Source: Candidatus Poribacteria bacterium (lineage in GTDB: Bacteria; Poribacteria; WGA-4E; WGA-3G). Taken from it: a DNA stretch of 64,000 nucleotides. Shown in pieces: positions 1,565-63,741 of this stretch; position 1 is the stretch's first letter, and each line of letters opens with the position of its first letter. A model generated the notes under the pieces. It did not search any database and was not told where the DNA came from. It saw nothing but the letters and a program-made list of their open reading frames with translations. A program made the translations under genes and the position numbers. The DNA lies in assembly GCA_965205025.1 (NCBI GenBank), contig CBDBFU010000014.1, forward strand, positions 196,041 to 260,040, given 5' to 3'.

Positions 1565-1882
1565 TCAATTGAGTAAATACCTTAACTAATGTGAGACTTT
1601 CTTGACTTCCATAATATGTATAGCAGGACGTAAACTGTGATGTAGACAAAGATAATCCAGTCCATACATACTTATAAAGTATATCAGAATAACAATTGTA
1701 TTACAAATACCATCAAAGTATATCAGTGGGTGTGTAAACTTTTTTTCACTTTACAACAATGTTTCTTATAAAAACGAATCGTTCGTACAGATAGAATTCT
1801 TCTTCTGTAGGAGAGAACTCCGACTCCCGACTCTTGCGTAATCCGTGATTCAGAAATAACACCTCTTTGTACCACAAACTTT

Positions 1883-2445: not shown

Positions 2446-3447
2446 ACTGTAAATAAGGATATAAGGCGGAAAGATAACAACACAAACTAACAACCAATAA
2501 CTAAAAACTATGAACTATAAGCTAATGACTCTCTATAAAGACGATCCTAATAACGAAGTTTCATATACGTCAAAAAAACATACCTTTTTAACCGTTGGGA
2601 ATCACAAAATCAGGAAGCACAACAATAACACAAAATCACAATTTTTCGAATTTCTTATAAAGTCAATTCAAAGTGGGATAAAGTCAGTCTATGACAGGGG
2701 TTATAGGGATAATTTACACCAATTTCAATGTCACACAGTGTGACAAAAAGTGTAACTTTTTTCATGTTTTCGATGCATAGAGAATGCAACAACAACATGA
2801 TCTACTGTCTGAGTATTTAGGATTAAATGTCTGGTTTTATACACTGTTTTTTGTCTGCATATTAGGATTAAATGTCTGGTTTTATGCATTTTAAACAATC
2901 ATAAATATAAGTTATTAAAGAATGTTCTCAAGACCAATATATGCCAATTATATACAAAGCCTAAAAGTAAAATAATGTCTCAATGATACCGATCAAATAC
3001 GTGAAATATGTGTAATTGGAGTTTTCTATATCAAGAATCCCTTACTCCAGAGGGGTACTATGTGTCTATAGAAAACAATATCGGAACAGTCTGGCACTCC
3101 AGCGGAGTGCTATGTCCCAATACACTTCGTATGAAAAACATATAAGTACTTAATACACACTTAAGTTATAGTTTAGTTAACGTATGTGATTCACGGAGAA
3201 TTGGTCTACTTTAAATTATAAACCCTTATAGAATAAGGCTTCGTAAAATTGCTCCGTGAAGGTTTCCGTGAAAGTGCAATCATCTCAAAACGATAAATAT
3301 TAACACTTTTGCCATTCACAATAGCCATACATCTAATATAATTATGAGATTGACAGATTACCTCCCAATAAATGATTGACAATGGCTAATATTAGATGTA
3401 ATAATTACGATACATTGTGGATGTGATGTTTATATTATACGATTTCT

Positions 3448-11367: not shown

Positions 11368-11541
11368 GATATGTTCCTCATATTTATTCTATTTGATTCG
11401 GTTTGGAAACCGAACCTATCGTTGTTTTTATTAAATTATAAGATGTGACATTCAATTCTTAGTATTTGATTACAATACAGTATAACATTATTCAGTAATA
11501 TTGATACAGTTTTCAACGTGACCTATAAATACTGGTTCATC

Positions 11542-12172
11542 GGTGTGTATAGAATTATATACCATAGGCGTCAATTTAGGAGAAAAAATGTTGTATCCCA
11601 GACCGGTAGGTGCGGTTTCCCAACCGCACTATTGGGCCTCAATTTTAGACTATGACTTTATTGGTTTTGAGTCCCGGGGAATGCCTAAATGGCATTCATA
11701 CCGTTGATTTGGTAGGGACGGAATGTCTATAGAAAAAGGATCAATTAACAAAATGAGTCCCGTAGGGACGGAATGTCTATAGAAGTGGTTATCACCAATA
11801 TCCCAAGCCCCGGTGAATGCCATAAGGCATTCATACCCGGTGAACGCCAAAAGGCGTTCATACCGTTGATTCCTTGATTCGCGGGGCGAAAGGTGTGTAG
11901 AAAACGTATAAACACAAAACACTAAGCCCCGGTGAATGACTAATGAAGATTAACTAAATATTTCGGTAATTCTAATTTTCCCAAACCCGGTAGGTGCGGT
12001 TTCCTAACCGCACTGGATCTTTCTCCAAAATTACCGAATTTAAAAATTAATCTTCATATGTCATTCATACCCGGTGAACGCCAAAAGGCGTTCATACCGT
12101 TGATTCCTTGATTCGCGGGGCGAAAGGTGTATCCCTAAATTGACGCCTATGGTGTGTATAGAATTATATACC
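11542..12172. mobile_element. composite non-autonomous element: 17-bp perfect TIRs (ATAGGCGTCAATTTAGG / CCTAAATTGACGCCTAT) enclosing nested palindromic units, flanked by a perfect 22-bp direct repeat GGTGTGTATAGAATTATATACC
   Basis: Direct repeat at 11542-11563 and 12151-12172; TIRs at 11564-11580 and 12134-12150. The interior holds hairpin families C (GGTGCGGTTTCC.AACCGCAC), D (GAATGCC..A..GGCATTC + ATACCGTTGATT), E (GTCCCGTAGGGAC + GGAATGTCTATAGAA) and F (GCCCCAGCGGGGC + GAAATGTGTGTAGAAAAC), plus a 114-bp family-B MITE (11944-12057) inserted inside a D hairpin that is itself inside an F hairpin. Confidence 0.6.
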
Positions 12173-12375
12173 TACCCAATGATAGATCTTTATATGTAAG
12201 ACACCGGTGTGCTATAAAGGGTACATACAACAGAAAAATCCAACGCATCTATGCAAGCTTCTCGGCAAGTCAAATAATTAGTTGTGTCAAAATTAATTGA
12301 TTATGGTATAGGTTTTTAGTATAATATCAAACAGGAAGATAACTCCAAAATTTTCATTATTTTAAGGAAAAGAAT

Positions 12376-25287: not shown

Positions 25288-27390
25288 TTATTCTTCAATT
25301 ACTTCATCATCTATTGCCGGTTCAATTACTTCGTCATCTATTATTGGTTCAATGGGTTGAACTTCGACTTCAATTTCTGTGTCTCCAGTCACAATAAACC
25401 TATTTACGATGAATGGCAGACCAGTAATTGGTACTGGTAATGGTTCCTCAATTTCTTCCTGTAGTTCACCATCGTCAGGTAGTTCACCGTCTTCAGGTAG
25501 TTCACTGTCATCTGGCATTTCACCATCGTCAGGTAGTTCACCGTCTTCAGGTAGTTCACTGTCATCTGGCATTTCACCGTCCTCTGGGAGTTCACCATTA
25601 TCAGGTAGTTCACTGTCTTCACCTATATCAGGTTCTGGTAGGTTCTCGAACAATGTGGTAAAGAATTGTTCAAAGAAATTTTCAAAAAGTTCTTCGATTT
25701 CTGGATCGAGCATTTCAGGTTCATCCTCTAATGCAGCAAGCGTTACAAGGACTAATCCTTTATCATACTGACCATCTTTGAGTTGATATATCAGTTGATC
25801 TAAACTCTCTGGAGATGGAGCATTCTGTATACCAAAAGGATTGAAACCGAAAGTTGTCGCAGAGGTGACGGCTAAACGAGCTGGACCAGGTATGAAGTTT
25901 TCAGGTATTTGGAGTTTAACTTCTCTATACATCTTCCGATTTCTACCAGCAGCACTCCAATGTGGTAACATCTCAACGACAAAAGTTGCTTCTTCACCCT
26001 GTTTAATTTCACCAACAACATGAATATCAGTTATCTCTGTGTGTAGAATATATGGTATATCTATGAGAGATATCTTGACTTCATCAATGGTTGCTCTTTC
26101 AGCACCATTATAGAGAATATTGGATAATGGTTGAATTATTGATTTCATATTTTCCAATACAGCTTTAAACGGGTCTGGTGCGATTGTTCTGAATGATTCT
26201 GTATAGACAGTATCAGTTTCTTTAAAACTAATTGCGACATTGGCTTCAATTGTACCCGGACTAACTTCCATTCGAATTGAATCCAGTGTTGTAGCAACTA
26301 CAACTGGAATTGCCCATTCTTGACCATATGCTACCTCATGGTTTTTCTGAATAGGTACTTGACTGTTGACGGGTTTATAATACACAGTAACAGGAATCAT
26401 ATCAGGTAATTTACCAAGTTCACCTACAATACCAGGCCTAAGGTCTTTGGTAATTGTACCTATTGGATTCCCATAAGCAGAAGCAGATTTATATGCAATT
26501 TCTGTATTCGGAACTATTCCATCAACTACAGCTCTGTATACAGGGAGTGACACCTTGCCAGCACGAAACATGTCATGACCAAAGGCAACAAAATTCCCAT
26601 CATAAACCTGAGTGACAGTTCCAAAACCTATACTGTTTACAACATCACCGGTTGCGATTGCAACACCAATCATGTCACCCGCAGAAAGTTGTAATGTCGC
26701 ATTTGCTGGTGGGGCAACAGGAGCACCGCCTATCCTTGAGAAAAATTGCACAGAATCAAAATGTGTACCGCTAAGATGATCCGAAAGTTGTTGTAACCTG
26801 TTGTTGTCAACACCAGAGATTGTAACTGGAGTCTTCACTTTGGTAAAGGTCGCTTTTATTCCACCGCCTGGAGCAGCAGGTGGATTCAAAATATCACCAA
26901 AGGTTGTATGGTTAATGGTCGCTTCCATAGCTTCAATTGGTGTAACCAAAAATCTATATGGAGCTTTAGCCCAGGCGTCCCCATAAGCAAGAGCACCGAA
27001 CACTCTTCCTGGAGGTCCAACTGGACTACCCGACATACCTTGTGCAACTCCTCCCATTGCTGTCACTGCTTCGTCGGTAAGAACACATTCATAGAGTGGA
27101 AATCCAAATCCAGAAGGTTGAATTCTACGAAATTCAGCTTCAAAAGCTACTTTACTCGTTCCTTCAATGGCAGTAATTACTTCTATACGGGTCTTAGTTG
27201 CAAGTTTACTGACTTCAGCTTCATACATCGGTTCAAGCACTACTTCTCCAACCAAAGGTGCTCCATTAAATACATTTGATACATCAGCAATAGTTGGATT
27301 TTGAACTTCAGGTTGTTCTTCATCCTGAGAACAACCGAATTGTATTATAATTGCTAATGTAATAAAAGCTATAACAAAATATCGTTTCAT
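25288..27390 (-). CDS. lipoprotein with a putative SpoIVB-type (peptidase S55-like) serine-protease motif and a C-terminal acidic Pro-rich tandem-repeat tail
   Basis: 700 aa; signal plus lipobox-like 'LAIIIQFGC'; 'GMSGSPVG...GALAYG...PIEAM' resembles the SpoIVB 'GMSGSP' catalytic-Ser region (from memory, moderate); C-terminus '(ELPEDGELPDDGEMPDDS)n' then 'IEPIIDDEVIEPAIDDEVIEE'. Confidence 0.5.
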   Translation of the reverse strand: MKRYFVIAFITLAIIIQFGCSQDEEQPEVQNPTIADVSNVFNGAPLVGEVVLEPMYEAEVSKLATKTRIEVITAIEGTSKVAFEAEFRRIQPSGFGFPLYECVLTDEAVTAMGGVAQGMSGSPVGPPGRVFGALAYGDAWAKAPYRFLVTPIEAMEATINHTTFGDILNPPAAPGGGIKATFTKVKTPVTISGVDNNRLQQLSDHLSGTHFDSVQFFSRIGGAPVAPPANATLQLSAGDMIGVAIATGDVVNSIGFGTVTQVYDGNFVAFGHDMFRAGKVSLPVYRAVVDGIVPNTEIAYKSASAYGNPIGTITKDLRPGIVGELGKLPDMIPVTVYYKPVNSQVPIQKNHEVAYGQEWAIPVVVATTLDSIRMEVSPGTIEANVAISFKETDTVYTESFRTIAPDPFKAVLENMKSIIQPLSNILYNGAERATIDEVKISLIDIPYILHTEITDIHVVGEIKQGEEATFVVEMLPHWSAAGRNRKMYREVKLQIPENFIPGPARLAVTSATTFGFNPFGIQNAPSPESLDQLIYQLKDGQYDKGLVLVTLAALEDEPEMLDPEIEELFENFFEQFFTTLFENLPEPDIGEDSELPDNGELPEDGEMPDDSELPEDGELPDDGEMPDDSELPEDGELPDDGELQEEIEEPLPVPITGLPFIVNRFIVTGDTEIEVEVQPIEPIIDDEVIEPAIDDEVIEE
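25455..25630. repeat. in-frame 54-bp tandem repeat (about 3.3 copies) encoding an 18-aa acidic unit ELPEDGELPDDGEMPDDS
   Basis: Plus-strand unit GGCATTTCACCATCGTCAGGTAGTTCACCGTCTTCAGGTAGTTCACTGTCATCT repeats with few substitutions. Confidence 0.8.
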
Positions 27391-34328: not shown

Positions 34329-35186
34329 TTATTTAACGGATTTAATTGTACTCCAGGTAGTGGCTAATTTACCTGCGGGTTCAACTGGGGTAGGAGTGTT
34401 TGAGCTAAGCACAACGAGTCCAGTCTTTTCAGGATTTTTCCCATAGACAACAGCATGGGGGTACCAACCATCCCATCCCTTTTGTCCAGTTTGTCCGCCA
34501 CCCTTATCACCATCATTAACACAAATACCTAATCCAATTTCAAGTCCTGCAGTAAGTGAAATTGAAAGTCCAAAATTTGCAGGTGTGAATTTGAACTCAT
34601 AATATGTCTTCTTAGCGCCTTCATCTCTGACAATAGCAACATCATCTGCTTCGAGTCCAGGAGCACCATTGGTTCTTTCATTCTGTAGAAGGATATCTCC
34701 GTTATCATGTAGTCCAACGTTATAAAGAAAGAATGGTTGTCCACCAGCACGATTCCCACTCGGAACAACAGATAGTTGAGCACCATCACCATTCCAAGCA
34801 GCACCCGCAGCATGTTCATGTTCGTCATCTGTGACGCTTAGTGCCAGATATACTGCATCCGGATTCCAAGCAATCATGAAACATGTTGTATGATCATCAG
34901 CATCATTCCAAACACCTGTTTGGTATGTTTCAAATGTCTTTATGACACCACCGTTAGCTTCGAATTCAAGACCACAAAACGGAGAACCATCGGTACCAGT
35001 GACAGCGTCCATGACACCATCCCATTCATCAAGTTTACCGTCAATGGTCACATCTAATCCAGTAACAGCATTGTATACATCATGAGTTTCACTACGCCAT
35101 TGCGCATCTGCTATGTTTAATGTAAACAGGACTACGAAAATAGTAGTCATAATAAAAACGTATTTTTTCATAAAAGATTTCCTCAA
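34329..35186 (-). CDS. secreted CBM9/DOMON-like carbohydrate-binding-type protein, paralog 1 (C-terminal motif KLATTWSTIKSVK)
   Basis: Signal peptide MKKYVFIMTTIFVVLFTLNIADA; 'IDGKLDEWDG' (CBM9-like DGxLDExxW), 'DDEHEHAAGAAWNGDGAQL', 'GLGICVNDGDKGGGQ'. About 55% identical to the adjacent paralog. Confidence 0.55.
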   Translation of the reverse strand: MRKSFMKKYVFIMTTIFVVLFTLNIADAQWRSETHDVYNAVTGLDVTIDGKLDEWDGVMDAVTGTDGSPFCGLEFEANGGVIKTFETYQTGVWNDADDHTTCFMIAWNPDAVYLALSVTDDEHEHAAGAAWNGDGAQLSVVPSGNRAGGQPFFLYNVGLHDNGDILLQNERTNGAPGLEADDVAIVRDEGAKKTYYEFKFTPANFGLSISLTAGLEIGLGICVNDGDKGGGQTGQKGWDGWYPHAVVYGKNPEKTGLVVLSSNTPTPVEPAGKLATTWSTIKSVK

Positions 35187-35337: not shown

Positions 35338-36222
35338 TTATTTCAGGGATTTTATATTACCCCATGTGGTTGTTATTTTATTTATAGGATCAACGGCGAG
35401 GGTTTCATCTGTGAGAATTACCAAACCAGTTTTATCTGGATTTTTCCCATGGACAATAGAATGTGGATACCAACCTGACCAACCTTTTTGCCCACCTTGT
35501 CCAGCTGCTTTATCTCCATCGTTAACACATATTCCAAGTCCAAATTGTAACCCTTCTTTAAATGGATCTTTATACCCTAAATTATCTGGTGAAATTCTAA
35601 ATTCATAGTATGTCTTCTTTTTTACTTCATCACGTACAATTACAACATCTTCACCTCCAACAAGACCGGGATTCCCACGGGTTGTTTCATTTTGGAGTAA
35701 TAGGTTTTTGGCATCATCAGACAATCCAGCATTATAGAGTATATCGGTTCTGGCAGGTTGACGTTTCCCAGTAGGTTCAAAAGCGAGTTGTGCACCATCA
35801 CCATTCCATGCTGCTCCTGCTGCATGTTCATGTTCATCATCGGTGACATCCAAAGCAAGATAGACATACTCTGGGGTCCAAAGAATCATAAAACATGTTT
35901 CATGGTCGTCCGGACCTTTCCAATTTCCACCACCGTGTGCTTCAAAAACACCTTGTTCATTTTTAATGCCGCAGAAAGGTTTTCCATCAGTTCCTTTAAC
36001 TGCATCTAAAACACCATCCCAATCATCAAGATTTCCATCTATTTTTATGTCGGTGTCTGCTTGAAGAGCATTATATTTGTCATGTGTTGCATGCCGCCAT
36101 TGAGCATTTACTGATACACTTGTTATGAAAAATAATAGAATTATTATGTATGTAGACTTTCTCATTTCTTTATCTCCTATTTCAGATATATCTTTAAATA
36201 TATATAAGTATAACCTAAACAA
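35338..36222 (-). CDS. secreted CBM9/DOMON-like protein, paralog 2 (C-terminal motif KITTTWGNIKSLK)
   Basis: Signal 'IIILLFFITSVSVNA'; the same conserved blocks as 34329..35186 ('IDGNLDDWDG', 'DDEHEHAAGAAWNGDGAQL', 'GLGICVNDGDKAAGQ'). Confidence 0.55.
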   Translation of the reverse strand: MFRLYLYIFKDISEIGDKEMRKSTYIIILLFFITSVSVNAQWRHATHDKYNALQADTDIKIDGNLDDWDGVLDAVKGTDGKPFCGIKNEQGVFEAHGGGNWKGPDDHETCFMILWTPEYVYLALDVTDDEHEHAAGAAWNGDGAQLAFEPTGKRQPARTDILYNAGLSDDAKNLLLQNETTRGNPGLVGGEDVVIVRDEVKKKTYYEFRISPDNLGYKDPFKEGLQFGLGICVNDGDKAAGQGGQKGWSGWYPHSIVHGKNPDKTGLVILTDETLAVDPINKITTTWGNIKSLK

Positions 36223-56629: not shown

Positions 56630-57150
56630 CTCGTCCCGGTAGGTGCGGTTTCATGTAGATTAAGAAAATATTTCGGTAATTCTAATTTTCCCAAACACGG
56701 TAGGTGCGGTTTCCCGGGGAATGCCTTATGGCATTCATACCGTTGATTCACCACGGGGAATGCTAAATAGCATTCATACCGTTGATTTGGATCTTTCTTT
56801 AAAATTACAGAATTTAAAAATTAATCTACATCTAACCGCACTATTAGCGTCAATTTTAGACTATGATTTTATTGGTATTGAGTCCCATAGGGACGGAATG
56901 TTTATAGAAAATGTGTATATCCCATAATTGAGTCCCGGGGAATGCCTAAATGGCATTCATACCCGGTGAACGCCAAAAGGCGTTCAACCGTTGATTCCTT
57001 GATTTGGTAGGGACGGAATGTATATAGAAGTCGTTATCAGCTAATATCCTAAGCCCCAGCGGGGCGAAATGTTTGTAGAAAACGGTTAAACCCACTAACA
57101 AAGCCCCAGCGGGGCGAAATGTGTATCCTGAAATTGATGCTTATGGTTTG
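56630..57150. repeat. cluster of nested palindromic units (C, B-MITE 56653-56830, D, E, F1-19nt-F2 composite)
   Basis: The family-C hairpin 'CCGGTAGGTGCGGTTTC | CTAACCGCACT' is split by a 178-bp B-MITE (TIR ATGTAGATTAAG / CTTAATCTACAT) that itself carries two D-type hairpins. Further downstream are E units (GTCCCATAGGGACGGAATGT) and AAGCCCCAGCGGGGCGAAATGT..TAGAAAAC + 18 nt + AAGCCCCAGCGGGGCGAAATGTGTATCC. Confidence 0.65.
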
Positions 57151-57411
57151 TAAACTTGTTGTCACAAGGGAGGGAGATTAAGCATAATAGTGTATCTATC
57201 TGACTATGGGAAACCTGAAGGGAGGGAACACTGATACCCAATTAAAAACGTATCATGATTCGAAGAACGTACCTTCAAGTGATTCATGCCAAAAACTTTA
57301 CACACCCCATGTAACATGTAACCCTAAATCTTGCTATTATCATCAAACTGTGCTAACATTGCTCAATATGCAGAATCTTGTTTCCCAGATTTCGATATAA
57401 GGAGATTGTCA

Positions 57412-58746: not shown

Positions 58747-58750
58747 ATAT

Positions 58751-58974
58751 ACTATAGTTTGGACAATTTCTGAAAGGTGTTTCACCTATTTTTAAAGTGT
58801 TTCTGGTTATTAACCACGTTTCTTACGACAGTCCAACTCTGAGAAAAACAAACTTAGATGCACCTAACAGTAGCCCCAGCGGGGCGAAATGTGTGTAGAA
58901 ACACCATACATCCAAGATCCAAGCCCCAGCGGGGCGAAATGTGTATCGCTAAAAACTGTCCAAACTATAGTAAA
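58751..58974. mobile_element. MITE-like element with 15-16-bp TIRs (CTATAGTTTGGACAA / CTGTCCAAACTATAG) carrying an F1-19nt-F2 palindromic composite
   Basis: TIRs read directly at 58751-58768 and 58953-58974. The interior holds AGCCCCAGCGGGGCGAAATGTGTGTAGAAAC + ACCATACATCCAAGATCCA + AGCCCCAGCGGGGCGAAATGTGTATCGC. It sits between the glutamine synthetase gene and the R-M promoter. Confidence 0.5.
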
Positions 58975-59143
58975 TATAATCTAATGTATAACGGAAACCC
59001 ACACTAATACAAACTCACCCAATTCAATTTTAGTCAATCTCCATAGAAAGAATCGGTATTCATCAATTTTAGTAAATTTATGAATTTATCAATGTAACTA
59101 TAAGAGTTCTTAAACTGTTAATTACGATAACTTATCTTGTATC

Positions 59144-59172
59144 TTGACAATTGCAAATCTGAGTGTTATACT
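59144..59172 (+). promoter_or_regulatory. near-consensus sigma-70 promoter (TTGACA - 17 bp - TATACT) driving the MTase gene
   Basis: TTGACA at 59144-59149, exact 17-bp spacer, TATACT at 59167-59172. The first ATG of the track ORF (59137) lies upstream of this promoter, so translation more likely starts at ATG 59230 (AGGA 7 nt upstream). Confidence 0.6.
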
Positions 59173-59229
59173 CACTTTGTCCAAGAAAAATCCTTCCAAA
59201 ACTATCCTAATTTCATAGTAGGACTTAAA

Positions 59230-60655
59230 ATGTTGCTAAATCTCAAACAAGCAAGTCAATGGGCATCAGACTATCTGAATAAATCCGTCACCACAGCTAA
59301 CATCACTTATCTAATTCAATACGGAAAGATTGACACTATTTCCAATAATGGATCTAAACTAATTCCTTTAGATAGTCTTAAAGAATATTATAGTCAATAT
59401 TGTCGAGAAATGCGTTGGAAAAACGAACTCGGTGAAGACCTTAATTGGGAATTATCTTTCGAAAAATATAAGGAAGCAGAGACTACTAAACATGTCCACC
59501 GTCTACATCCATATAAAGGTAAATTTATACCTCAGTTGGTAGAATATTTTTTAGATCAACATACAGACAACTTTAAGAATGATATATATTTCCAACCAGG
59601 GGATGTTGTGCTTGATCCATTTTGTGGAAGTGGAACAACCTTAGTCCAAGCAAATGAATTAGGTTTACACGCGATAGGCATAGACATTTCTGTTTTTAAT
59701 TCATTCATTAGTAATGCAAAAGTTGAGAATTTCAACCTAACGAAATTGTATGAGGAATCAAAAAAAATAACATCCGCTCTTAAAGTAAAAGTGGCATCCT
59801 CAAATATAGTTGATTTTGATACTAAACTATCCGATATCTTGACAAAATTTAATAATGAGTATTTTCCAATATCCTTCAAAAAACGAGTCAGGAATGGTGA
59901 AATTAATCAAAAGAAATATGGAGCAGAAAAAGAAGCTGCATTTTTAAATACATATCAAAAACTTATAACAGAGTTTGAAATTGATATTCAAATGCCCACT
60001 GATTCAGCACGCTTTATGAAAAAATGGTATCTTCCACGGGTAAAAGCAGAGATAGAATTTGTCTATAATGAAATATGTAAGGTGGAAGATATATCTATAA
60101 AAAACGCTCTAATGCTTATTCTAAGTCGTACTATTCGTTCATGTAGAGCAACAACCCACGCAGATTTAGGCACATTACGGAATCCAGTTACCACAACTTA
60201 CTTTTGTAGAAAACATGGTAAAGTTTGTAAACCACTTTTTTTCAATTTTAGGTTGGTGGGAACGGTATTGTAAGGATAGTATTGAACGATGGAATGAATA
60301 TGGAAAGTTAAAGACGGATACACATCAATATTGTTTAACTGGGGATTCTCGTACAATAAACATCCTAACCATGTTAGAACAGACTAATAAGAAATTAGCA
60401 GAAATTGTTCAGAATAGACGAATAAAAGGTATTTTTACAAGTCCACCTTATGTTGGTTTGATTAATTACCACGAACAACATGCTTATGCTTATGATCTTT
60501 TTGGATTTAAAAGGTTAGACGAATTAGAGATTGGACCTCTCTTTAAAGGAAAGGGTAAAGATGCAAGAGAATCTTATGTCCAAGGTGTCTCAGAAGTTCT
60601 TAGGAACTGTAAACGATTCTTAGCAGATGATTATAATGTCTTTATCGTAGCCTAA
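59230..60655 (+). CDS. alpha-class DNA methyltransferase (N6A or N4C; motif I DPFCGSGTT ... motif IV SPPY), interrupted by a +1 frameshift at a T7 homopolymer (60236-60242)
   Basis: Track ORFs 59137..60273 and 60215..60655 are two frames of one gene. The second frame is open from 60170 and contains 'TSPPYVGLINY'. The only overlap region contains TTTTTTT, and one T fewer (T6) would fuse the frames. This is either phase variation, a sequencing indel, or a recent pseudogene. Confidence 0.6.
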
Positions 60656-60810
60656 TGATAAGTTTAACTTGTATCCAACAATTGCCGAATTAGCTGATAT
60701 GAAGATAATAGATCAACACAAACGTCCGGTCCTAAACCGTACTGAGAAAAATAGAGACACAGCCTATTCGGAGACGATATTTCATTTGAAAGATAATCAG
60801 GTTTGAAGAA

Positions 60811-61581
60811 ATGCTATTACAAAGACGCGAAATGATTAAAGAAAAGATAAAGGAGTGTCTGCGTGATAAATTTCGAGAATATAATCCGGAAACAGACAAT
60901 ATGCCTTTTCATTATCGACTACTCGGAAGAGATAGGATGGCTTTATACTCGTTCATTCATTCAATCAATACCAAATTCGGAATTTCATTTTATGAACCAG
61001 TTGCAATTGCTTTGGCAAAAGAAAGGTTTAAAATAGCAGACACACAAGTTAAACCTGGAGACAAGATAAGTCTTGAAGCACATCAAAGAATACAGACAAT
61101 AATGAACGGGTTAAGTACTGCAGAAAGAAATCCGAACAAGTCATTAGAAATTCAAGAGATAAGGGAAGTCTGTACTTCAGGAAAATTAGAAGACGTTAAA
61201 CTCACTAAAGTTGATGTCTGGTTAGAAACAGATGAAGGTGAATTGTTTCTAATTGACTTTAAAACTGTAAAACCTAACAAAGGTGATTTTCAGAAATTTA
61301 AGAGGACATTACTTGAATGGAGCGCTGCTGAATTAGCAAGAAATCCGGATGGTGTTGTTAATGCTTTAATCGGCATACCATACAATCCTTATGAACCGAA
61401 ACCATATCAACGATGGACTCTTAAGGGTATGTTTGATCTTAAACATGATATATTGATAGCAGAAGATCTATGGGATTTTATTGGTGGACAAGGAAGTTAT
61501 GATGCATTATTGAATGCATTTGAACAAGCAGGGATAGAGTTAAGAAATGAAATTGATGAGTATTTTGCAAATTTTAAATGA
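60811..61581 (+). CDS. putative type II restriction endonuclease (PD-(D/E)xK candidate) partnered with the upstream MTase
   Basis: 256 aa, no other family signal. 'LTKVDVWL...ELFLIDFKTVK' fits a hD ... hhh(D/E)xK core. The size and position downstream of an MTase suggest an R-M pair. Resemblance to the TdeIII family is only a vague recollection. Confidence 0.4.
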   Translation: MLLQRREMIKEKIKECLRDKFREYNPETDNMPFHYRLLGRDRMALYSFIHSINTKFGISFYEPVAIALAKERFKIADTQVKPGDKISLEAHQRIQTIMNGLSTAERNPNKSLEIQEIREVCTSGKLEDVKLTKVDVWLETDEGELFLIDFKTVKPNKGDFQKFKRTLLEWSAAELARNPDGVVNALIGIPYNPYEPKPYQRWTLKGMFDLKHDILIAEDLWDFIGGQGSYDALLNAFEQAGIELRNEIDEYFANFK

Positions 61582-61608
61582 AAATACAAGTTCATTACTC
61601 AATTTAAC

Positions 61609-63398: not shown

Positions 63399-63741
63399 TA
63401 TGAAGATTAACTTTTTAAATCGGTAATTCTAATTCCACAGACCCGGTATGCGGGGAATGCTAAATAGCATTCATACCGTTGATTTCTTGAGTCCCGTAGG
63501 GACGGAATGTCTATAGCAAAGGTATATATCCACATAATTGAGTCCCGTAGGGACGGAATGTGTATTGAAGTCGTTATCGCCAATATCCTAAGCCCCAGCG
63601 GGGCGAAAGGTGTGTAGAAAACGTACTAAACCACTAAACCTAAGCCCCGGTGAATGCCATAAGGCATTCATACCGTTGATTTGCGGGGCGAAAGGTGTAT
63701 CCTTAACCCGTATAATACCGAATTAATATATTAATCTTCAT
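63399..63741. mobile_element. family-B MITE (TIR TATGAAGATTAAC / TTAATCTTCATTTA) carrying nested D, E, E, F1, F(D-split) units, inserted into a family-A hairpin; the matching empty site is at 63875-63901
   Basis: Flanks 'GTAGCACAAACTG' (63386-63398) and 'GTTTGTGCAG' (63743-63752) are the two halves of the intact hairpin 'GTAGCACAAACTTTCCAGTTTGTGCAC' found 120 bp downstream (63875-63901). Confidence 0.6.

Follow-up and report, generated by a model that had tools for sequence, protein, structure and literature searches.

Dimeric HUH enzymes such as TnpA of IS608 and ISDra2 and TnpA_REP of E. coli bind to hairpins that form in single-stranded DNA (ssDNA) and cut nearby short motifs. In IS608 and ISDra2, a dimer of the Y1 enzyme binds two hairpins, and insertion occurs into ssDNA beside a short motif, without target duplication. 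Here, we analyzed a recurrent composite of two hairpin units in a 64-kb stretch of Candidatus Poribacteria DNA (hereafter, the window). This assignment is supported by GlnA, for which we found one 100% identical match, encoded on a contig of 480 kb, and 89% identity to proteins named Candidatus Poribacteria. Our analysis of the composite, and above all of its flagged copy at 58871-58946, points to a head-to-tail doublet of units resembling repetitive extragenic palindromes (REPs), i.e., a non-autonomous, selfish mobile repeat, spread across Poribacteria genomes, that is probably a substrate of Y1 enzymes of subclass 1.2. We assign this reading a probability of about 0.7.

The best-described relatives of such units are REPs, their inverted doublets (REPINs) and the associated RAYT proteins (Nunvar 2010; Bertels & Rainey 2011, PMC3116915; Ton-Hoang 2012). 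Several properties are shared. The units are short, high-copy extragenic palindromes (a 13-nt core, 14 units in 5 loci of the window and dozens in other Poribacteria loci), their family-specific stems are kept by compensatory change, and their presence at orthologous sites varies, as was observed for both copies flanking glnA. In other phyla, they are also concentrated near single-copy Y1 HUH genes, inverted copies lying on either side of the gene; inverted doublets occur in some of the loci that we collected from other genomes (L018, L054 and L084). In contrast to classical REPs, however, the core has 13 nt, with a 5-bp stem, rather than 20-40 nt; GTAG/CGTC does not abut the stem, the tail being GAAAKGTNTRTAG with TAG 10-14 nt away; the commonest form is head-to-tail with a fixed 50-nt period instead of an inverted doublet, a form not seen among the window copies; and the protein has the signature of subclass 1.2, not of class 2 RAYT. 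Atypical REPs without GT[AG]G have been reported for some subclasses (Quentin et al. 2018, PMC6006769).

Subclass 1.2 of TnpA_Y1 was described as a low-copy relative of the IS200 transposase that lacks the properties of an insertion sequence (IS), is marked 'REP: no' and occurs mostly in Cyanobacteria and Bacteroidetes (Quentin et al. 2018, PMC6006769). The proteins adjoining our hairpins share its features (DH[IV]H, WQ, Y---Q--HH, ~150 aa, low copy); unlike in the published description, phased hairpin units flank their genes, which were also found in Acidobacteriota. TIRYTs, or TIRtrons, are RAYT-like genes with longer, sometimes doubly palindromic inverted repeats, among which Acidobacteria are prominent (Di Nocera et al. 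2013, PMC3733652). Their flanking repeats are likewise moderately abundant repeat families, but the GGGGWSAS motif that they share does not fit GGGGCGAA, a comparison at the level of the published motif. Elements of the IS200/IS605 group and their miniature derivatives, palindrome-associated transposable elements (PATEs), also have sub-terminal hairpins on one strand and in the same orientation; in the repeats described here, by contrast, only 17-20 nt lie between the hairpins, no transposase gene is present, and phased arrays are formed.

Other intergenic repeats show a more general likeness. BOX of Streptococcus pneumoniae is a modular boxA-boxB(n)-boxC repeat with a variable number of ~45-50-bp internal units, whose end modules pair. 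It resembles our arrays in its modularity and variable unit number, but the sequences are unrelated and, to our knowledge, BOX has no known Y1 link. Small dispersed repeats (SDRs) of Nostoc punctiforme, reportedly described by Elhai and colleagues in 2008, are said to be ~27-36 nt long, to form hairpins and to be nested in other repeats, much like the S mini-elements discussed below; they belong to a different phylum, and the likeness refers to their description. A cyanobacterial SDR or Nostoc repeat was considered as the identity of the composite itself and dropped, as both GlnA and the DNA repeats point to Poribacteria.

Phased hairpin units in the window and in other genomes

When the window was searched for the 19-mer AAGCCCCAGCGGGGCGAAA with up to 3 mismatches, five sites were detected (57051, 57101, 58871, 58921 and 63590), all on the + strand, compared with 0 expected from 100 dinucleotide shuffles; the 13-nt palindromic core alone recovered the same five sites. 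Intact copies formed pairs with a spacing of exactly 50 nt (57051/57101 and 58871/58921). The flagged stretch, 58866-58950, reads TAGCCCCAGCGGGGCGAAATGTGTGTAGAAAC - ACCATACATCCAAGATCC - AAGCCCCAGCGGGGCGAAATGTGTAT. Its full repeat unit, F1 (58871-58902, + strand, TAGCCCCAGCGGGGCGAAATGTGTGTAGAAAC), consists of the 13-nt core GCCCCAGCGGGGC and the tail GAAATGTGTGTAGAAAC; an inter-hairpin segment of 18 nt follows (58903-58920, + strand, ACCATACATCCAAGATCC); and the terminal unit, F2 (58921-58946, + strand, AAGCCCCAGCGGGGCGAAATGTGTAT), has the core and GAAATGTGTAT without the AGAAAAC continuation. A preliminary description of this DNA had given the same architecture, but placed the variable segment at 58897-58915, about 6 nt off. 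The five loci to which it attributed this architecture were all present as described; three additions (elements within hairpin loops, a four-unit array around the pair, and the diverged form of one doublet) are detailed below.

In total, 14 units were found across 5 intergenic loci, and all other repeat-bearing stretches revealed by self-comparison of the window were also intergenic. The + strand carried all units of the GCCCC type (8) and of the GTCCC type, as well as each of the 10 S elements. GC and AT skew of the window followed gene strand, such that replication direction could be read from neither, and window skew provided no tie between the all-plus orientation and the lagging strand.

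Each unit comprises a 5-bp G+C-rich stem, a 3-nt loop, the tail G-R-A-A-K-GT-N-T-R-TAG-A-A-A-C and ~17-20 less constrained bases, with the hairpin recurring every 50 +/- 1 nt. A scan of the collection with a 17-nt GCCCC-type core plus GAAA yielded at least 115 loci, which form the basis of the taxonomic spread reported here. The hairpin together with a GAAAKGTGT tail was found in more than 20 Candidatus Poribacteria loci and, among the matches listed, in Poribacteria only. Doublets 49-52 nt apart predominated in this phylum, accompanied by singles and longer arrays; the number of copies per array ranged between 1 and 9, with a constant period. In L018, an array of six plus three copies had identical inter-hairpin segments, which indicates tandem amplification. 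Over all collected loci, at least 45 distinct doublets had a spacing of 49-53 nt (nearly all 49-51), with GCCCC, GTCCC, GTTCC, GCTCC, GCACC, GCCTC, ATCCC and GCCCT as stems.

Beyond Poribacteria, units of the same design were detected in Verrucomicrobia, Bacteroidota, Acidobacteriota and Planctomycetota. Conservation outside the window, on which the preliminary description had made its composite depend, was thus observed both within the phylum and in others. In Verrucomicrobia (L054 and L084), the units form a ~190-nt palindromic element with GTCCCGTAGGGAC-nnn-ATGTTTATAG, 22 nt, AAGCCCCAGCGGGGCGAAAT, a centre and the mirror image, and the same plan was seen in Chitinophagaceae, Hymenobacter, Acidobacteriota and Phycisphaerae. 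Inverted forms outside the window occurred in L018, L011, L054, L084, L080 and L035. At least three unrelated inverted-repeat frames contained the same doublet or array, and in L101, L110, L112 and L064 it had no frame.

To avoid selection by hairpin, units for a test of the stem were chosen by the tail motif alone, giving 56 distinct sequences. A perfect 5-bp hairpin was present in 33 of them at the single expected register, compared with 0-1 at eight other registers, and five stem variants were represented. Paired cells amounted to 77.5% (63.5% in shuffles) and cells changed on both sides to 34 (12 in shuffles); neither value was reached in any of 500 shuffles, and slid registers gave lower values. 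These data support selection on the stem-loop, with compensatory changes keeping the stems, and do not tell DNA from RNA. In addition, doublets outperformed shuffles in folding (z -2.4 to -3.2). Owing to the palindromic core, a direct doublet could also fold into a single 12-bp stem around the spacer (predicted -15 kcal/mol, z = -3.2), which makes direct and inverted doublets less distinct than in classical REPs.

Association with Y1 transposase genes and absence from relatives

Clustering of open reading frames (ORFs) from the at least 115 motif-selected loci revealed one small family adjoining the hairpins in different phyla. It corresponds to Pfam Y1_Tnp, with HUH and Tyr conserved, and was the sole recurring family among the matches listed. 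A Y1 gene was located within ~600 nt of the motif in at least seven loci (tblastn); for example, a head-to-tail array of AAGCCTCAGCGAGGCGAAATCATAATAGAAAA plus ~17 nt precedes the Y1 gene in L076, and a 50-nt array lies 200 nt from it in L051. Homologs are abundant and carry the JGI name 'REP element-mobilizing transposase RayT'. An alignment of the hairpin-adjoining family showed DH[IV/T]H, WQ and YI--Q--HH in proteins of 153-180 aa, in agreement with the features of subclass 1.2 given above.

An independent sample was obtained by selecting 80 metagenome loci by the Y1 protein alone. With a unit defined as a G+C-rich stem of 5 bp with a 3-nt loop and G[AG][AC]A, 45 of the 80 loci contained units within 1.5 kb, 106 in all compared with 1.15 expected from first-order Markov controls. 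Stems included GTCCC-GTA, GCCCC-AGC and GCTCC-GTA, and 18 of 21 same-strand neighbour spacings were 48-52 nt. Six units with a 51-nt period end 8 nt before the ATG in L153. In L176, a doublet GCGCCAGCGGCGCGACATGTTTATAGCAA - 20 nt - AAGCCCCAGCGGGGCGGCATG (in detail, GCGCCAGCGGCGC GACATGTTTATAGCAA - 20 nt - AAGCCCCAGCGGGGC GGCATG) is present on both sides of the Y1 gene. A perfect hairpin occurred within 60 nt upstream of 55% of Y1 genes (1.4% in shuffles) and within 150 nt downstream of 74% (3.1% in shuffles), a test that ignores strand, as a perfect palindrome is a hairpin on both strands; the orientation of units rests on the count that required the tail.

Mobility was assessed by comparing the region around glnA and the adjacent restriction-modification (R-M) genes with four syntenic loci (L116-L119) whose GlnA is 89-93% identical to that of the window. 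The spacer upstream of glnA has ~960 nt in the window and 288-433 nt in the relatives. The composite located there (56636-57146) was absent from L117, L118 and L119, and L116 had different cargo between inverted ends of the same type. Downstream of glnA, the flagged doublet lies in a 223-bp miniature inverted-repeat transposable element (MITE) that was absent from L116-L119, including 3 of 3 relatives with R-M genes. These relatives keep the flanking sequence and the promoter-like site of the methylase gene (TTGACA-17-TATACT), which is outside the MITE and conserved without it. Since the syntenic loci lack them, both glnA-flanking copies are recent insertions and not conserved regulators of glnA or the R-M genes, and a host function is unnecessary to explain their position. 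This contradicts the earlier suggestion that they act as insulators, terminators or regulators there, because relatives without either copy retain the promoter-proximal sequence.

A possible mechanism can be drawn by analogy with IS608 TnpA. A Y1 enzyme would bind the hairpins in ssDNA, as a dimer on two hairpins, and would cleave near the conserved TAT|AG of the tail, with units being copied to new sites. The first unit runs on as ...GTNTAT|AGAAAAC and the last ends with ...GTGTAT, such that the end of each unit is the motif after which the next may start, and repeated insertion or slippage could give rise to arrays. Because a unit added after the motif would regenerate it, both the fixed 50-nt period and the truncated last unit would follow. 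Doublets may also be carried passively in MITEs bounded by inverted repeats, as appears to be the case for the flagged copy, and hairpin loops in the single-stranded state could be targets for still smaller elements. The 'paired protein-binding site' of the preliminary description comes near to this explanation, in that two identical hairpins could be bound by a dimeric Y1 HUH transposase. As no Y1 gene was found in the examined loci of Poribacteria, the cognate enzyme of this phylum is one that we infer.

Several observations weigh against a Y1-dependent mobile repeat. No Y1 gene was detected in the window (Pfam, 49 ORFs of at least 120 aa) or in ~35 Poribacteria loci covering ~280 kb (tblastn and HMM search), and none of the 80 protein-selected Y1 loci carried Poribacteria-type repeats. 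The palindrome has no abutting GTAG tag, TAG being 10-14 nt 3' of the stem, and window copies are arranged head-to-tail, not as REPINs, the presumed mobile form of classical REPs. Elements bounded by inverted repeats contain four of the five window copies, and other transposases could fully account for the movement of these copies. The cleavage site proposed above, like the mobile unit, is approximate. Finally, the taxonomic spread reflects a biased sample, as the scan that gave the at least 115 loci was seeded with a GCCCC-type 17-mer.

A broader proposal, which we consider somewhat less than an even chance, is that phased units are the missing REP-type substrates of subclass 1.2: they would occur in at least five phyla with near-identical cores (GCCCCAGCGGGGC and GTCCCGTAGGGAC), grow head-to-tail in 50-nt steps, and have bloomed in Poribacteria together with ~35-nt loop-inserting elements at up to four nesting levels. 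REP/REPIN-RAYT systems, REPtrons and TIRtrons have been described; our literature search on the motif strings, on Poribacteria with MITE or REP, and on RAYT with other phyla found nothing specific. These units offer a concrete, testable DNA substrate for a widespread, uncharacterised group of Y1 HUH proteins, and a REP design that departs from the REPIN paradigm in its 13-nt core, conserved tail and strict 50-nt phasing of direct units. They are also relevant to annotation, as they account for much of the inflated intergenic space in Poribacteria and will mislead CRISPR finders and assemblers.

Alternative explanations

The flagged doublet is at the right end of its MITE, designated D (58750-58972, + strand, 223 bp, inverted ends ACTATAGTTTGGACAATT / AACTGTCCAAACTATAGT). 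With terminal inverted repeats of 17-20 bp, a length of 197-434 bp, no coding capacity and ten copies in Poribacteria loci, D has the properties of a MITE. It is therefore conceivable, albeit unlikely, that doublets are passive cargo of MITEs (D, O and M types) whose inverted ends are recognised by DDE-type transposases, the hairpins having no role in mobility. The D element of the flagged copy, with its 17-20-bp ends, is kept whole in at least seven Poribacteria genomes, its members being alignable end to end, leader and inter-hairpin segment included. Similarly, ends of the ATAGGCGTCAATTTAGG type enclose two four-unit arrays of the window and M ends (ATGAAGATTAAC.../...TTAATCTTCAT) enclose a third, and the observed differences in presence and absence concern whole elements. 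However, passive carriage does not account for doublets or arrays in at least three unrelated frames and without any frame (the four loci listed above), for arrays of 1-9 copies with a constant period, or for units flanking Y1 genes in other phyla. In addition, a transposase with matching ends was not seen; the collected loci contained no parent IS with D ends. Flanks of D are A+T-rich, and the empty site in relatives resisted base-level alignment.

A small structured RNA, or a cis-regulatory RNA or DNA element such as a terminator, insulator or mRNA stabiliser, appears improbable. Both the covarying stems and the better-than-shuffled folding of the doublet would suit it, and classical REPs are capable of stabilising the mRNA upstream or of attenuating transcription (Di Nocera 2013, PMC3733652). 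The preliminary description had looked to covariation as support for an RNA; the stems do covary, but this is equally expected for a DNA hairpin, so an RNA is not specifically supported. Moreover, no Rfam family matched the units at gathering or E <= 10 thresholds, close relatives lack the two glnA-flanking copies at the orthologous sites, the promoter-like site of the methylase gene lies outside the element, and five copies occur per 64 kb in unrelated contexts. These results also speak against the small structured RNA gene that had been proposed. As for an intrinsic terminator, + strand hairpins are followed by GAAATG with no T run; the only unit that scored as terminator-like was 57115-57103 on the - strand. 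We regard as more improbable still that the host co-opted the repeats for binding of a nucleoid or topology protein, as in bacterial interspersed mosaic elements (BIMEs) bound by IHF or gyrase in E. coli. The 50 nt would equal ~5 helical turns, the 50 +/- 1 nt spacing is constant over phyla and stem variants, and intergenic regions, divergent ones among them, are enriched in copies; yet relatives show no positional conservation, no candidate protein was found, and unit-wise insertion or duplication explains the phasing equally well.

The composite superficially resembles a CRISPR array, i.e., an orphan or degenerate mini-CRISPR of two repeats and one spacer, in having a ~30-nt stem-loop repeat, an interspersed short variable segment, and a truncated, degenerate last repeat. 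This reading is excluded. The segments have 17-20 nt, too short compared with spacers of ~26-72 nt, and are homologous between copies and genomes, or identical within longer arrays (L018), rather than unique. The segment of D, beginning CCATATCCCCAAGG, is homologous in its seven alignable members from different Poribacteria genomes and was thus inherited, not acquired. Five dispersed loci lie within 64 kb, no Cas domain was detected in the 49 window ORFs of at least 120 aa, no CRISPR-DR family matched the units at E <= 10, and the genes with which the units associate in other phyla encode a Y1 transposase instead of Cas proteins. The preliminary description was right in rejecting acquired spacers and nearby cas genes. 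TIGR-Tas arrays, CAST mini-arrays, retron msd and integron attC were also considered and dropped, being at odds with the period, the copy number and the absence of partner genes. A sponge-symbiont genome is thus freed of a false lead towards CRISPR or regulation.

Larger composites, nested elements and other observations

The pair of hairpins is one module of larger, nested mobile elements, a point missed by the preliminary description. At 11669-12132, 56880-57126 and 63489-63700, the doublet is the 3' half of a four-unit array with two GTCCCGTAGGGAC units followed by two GCCCCAGCGGGGC units, all on the same strand with a ~50-nt period; the 5' half represents a second unit type, GAGTCCCGTAGGGACGGAATGTCTATAGAA, two per array. 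The linker between units 2 and 3 is conserved across the three arrays, and the four units are thus copied as a single piece. At 11805-12132 and 63590-63700, extra length comes from small elements, ~35-nt mini-insertions, inside hairpin loops; at 11805-12132 and 63642-63700, AAGCCCC is parted from GCGGGGCGAAA by GGTGAATGCC...CCGTTGATT elements.

Upstream of glnA, the composite (56636-57146, + strand) is composed of a P hairpin with an M MITE (56653-56831) splitting it, an inverted end in degenerate form (56843-56859), the four-unit array, and the inverted end on the right, CCTGAAATTGATGCTTATGG (57127-57146). The 5' half of its array (56880-57030, + strand) has two GTCCC-type units, H1 (56880-56912) and H1' (56930-57030), the loop of the latter being split by two S mini-elements; the 3' half (57051-57126, + strand) is the second intact doublet of the window, F1 - 17 nt - F2. 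Between this composite and the conserved glnA leader, ~150 nt (57147-57295) had no counterpart in the four syntenic loci; they contain GGGAGGGA repeats and a promoter-like TTGTCA-18-CATAAT.

The composite at 11540-12175 (+ strand) is bounded by a 25-nt inverted repeat, TATATACCATAGGCGTCAATTTAGG and its complement. Its units H1 (11669-11736), H2 (11805-11905) and H2' (11924-12132) are each split by S elements, one of which is itself split by an M MITE (11941-12059) holding a P hairpin, giving four nesting levels at 11924-12132. The third array is between M MITE inverted ends (63400-63741, + strand), the M MITE being within the loop of a GCACAAACT...AGTTTGTGC hairpin; its units are H1 (63489-63518), H1' (63540-63565), H2 (63590-63622) and H2' (63642-63700, split by S). 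At 3044-3120 (+ strand) lies a doublet that has diverged but keeps the design; its stems are longer (TACTCC/GGGGTA and GCACTCC/GGAGTGC) and its tail is CTATGTGTCTATAGAAAAC.

S mini-elements have ~33-36 nt, GG[G/T]GAATGCC-N4-5-GGCATTCATACCGTTGATT, with covarying stems (GAATGCC, GAACGCC and GAATGCT). They were found on the + strand at 11676-11711, 11812-11880, 12072-12114, 56715-56790, 56937-57006, 63451-63484 and 63649-63682, and also in Poribacteria loci L009, L018, L045, L079 and L112. All 10 S copies of the window are preceded by CC(C), and S elements are located in the 3-nt loops of H1/H2 hairpins. The units filled by S differ among the three copies of the four-unit array, implying that the insertions were independent and loop-specific. 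Copies of the M MITE (1893-1983, 11941-12059, 56653-56831 and 63400-63741), each with different cargo in the centre, were likewise always within the loop of another hairpin: an S stem-loop, a P hairpin (GGTGCGGTTTCC-AACCGCAC) and, twice, a K hairpin (CACAAACT-N4-AGTTTGTG), which is intact at 2364, 3473, 5419 and 63879. These data document that some of the smallest apparent mobile elements land preferentially in hairpin loops, which bears on how ssDNA transposition shapes intergenic DNA.

Additional repeats were also observed. Elements of the ATAGGCGTCAATTTAGG type (11540-11580 and 12134-12175 in the window; L018, 3240-3680; L032) have a ~20-nt direct repeat on both sides, too long for an ordinary target duplication, that begins with GGTG and can form a hairpin: GGTGTGTATAGAATTATATACC in the window, the P hairpin in L032 and GGTGTATAGCACATCGTCAAC in L018. 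Canonical GTAG-tagged REPs such as CTGTAGGAGGGGATTCCGATCCCCGA and GTAGGGGCGGGGTCTCCCCGCCC were present in the window (1806-1840 and 1929-1955), in L116 (2610-2790) and in L032, L106 and L018; Poribacteria therefore have several REP families, possibly with separate Y1 enzymes. In L091 (2049-4100), two oppositely oriented D-type MITEs bracket a gene for a 497-aa protein, which was considered as a transposase and rejected, as it is an AAA_21/AbiEii-like ATPase. The pair and the gene may form a composite mobile unit with a defence-type gene.

Near the flagged copy, the N6/N4 DNA methylase (59240-60810 region) has 523-524 aa in orthologous loci and is split in the window into overlapping ORFs, 59137-60273 and 60215-60655, beside an intact TdeIII-type endonuclease gene (60811-61581), reflecting either a frameshifted pseudogene or a sequencing error. 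In L119 (4336-4379, compared with 58747-61608 of the window), a creatininase gene directly follows glnA; the methylase/TdeIII pair is thus itself an insertion found in only some lineages. Elsewhere in the window, 34329-35186 and 35338-36222 are adjacent paralogous ORFs with no Pfam match, and an 18/54-nt coding tandem repeat (25454-25621) lies inside a 700-aa ORF (25288-27390).

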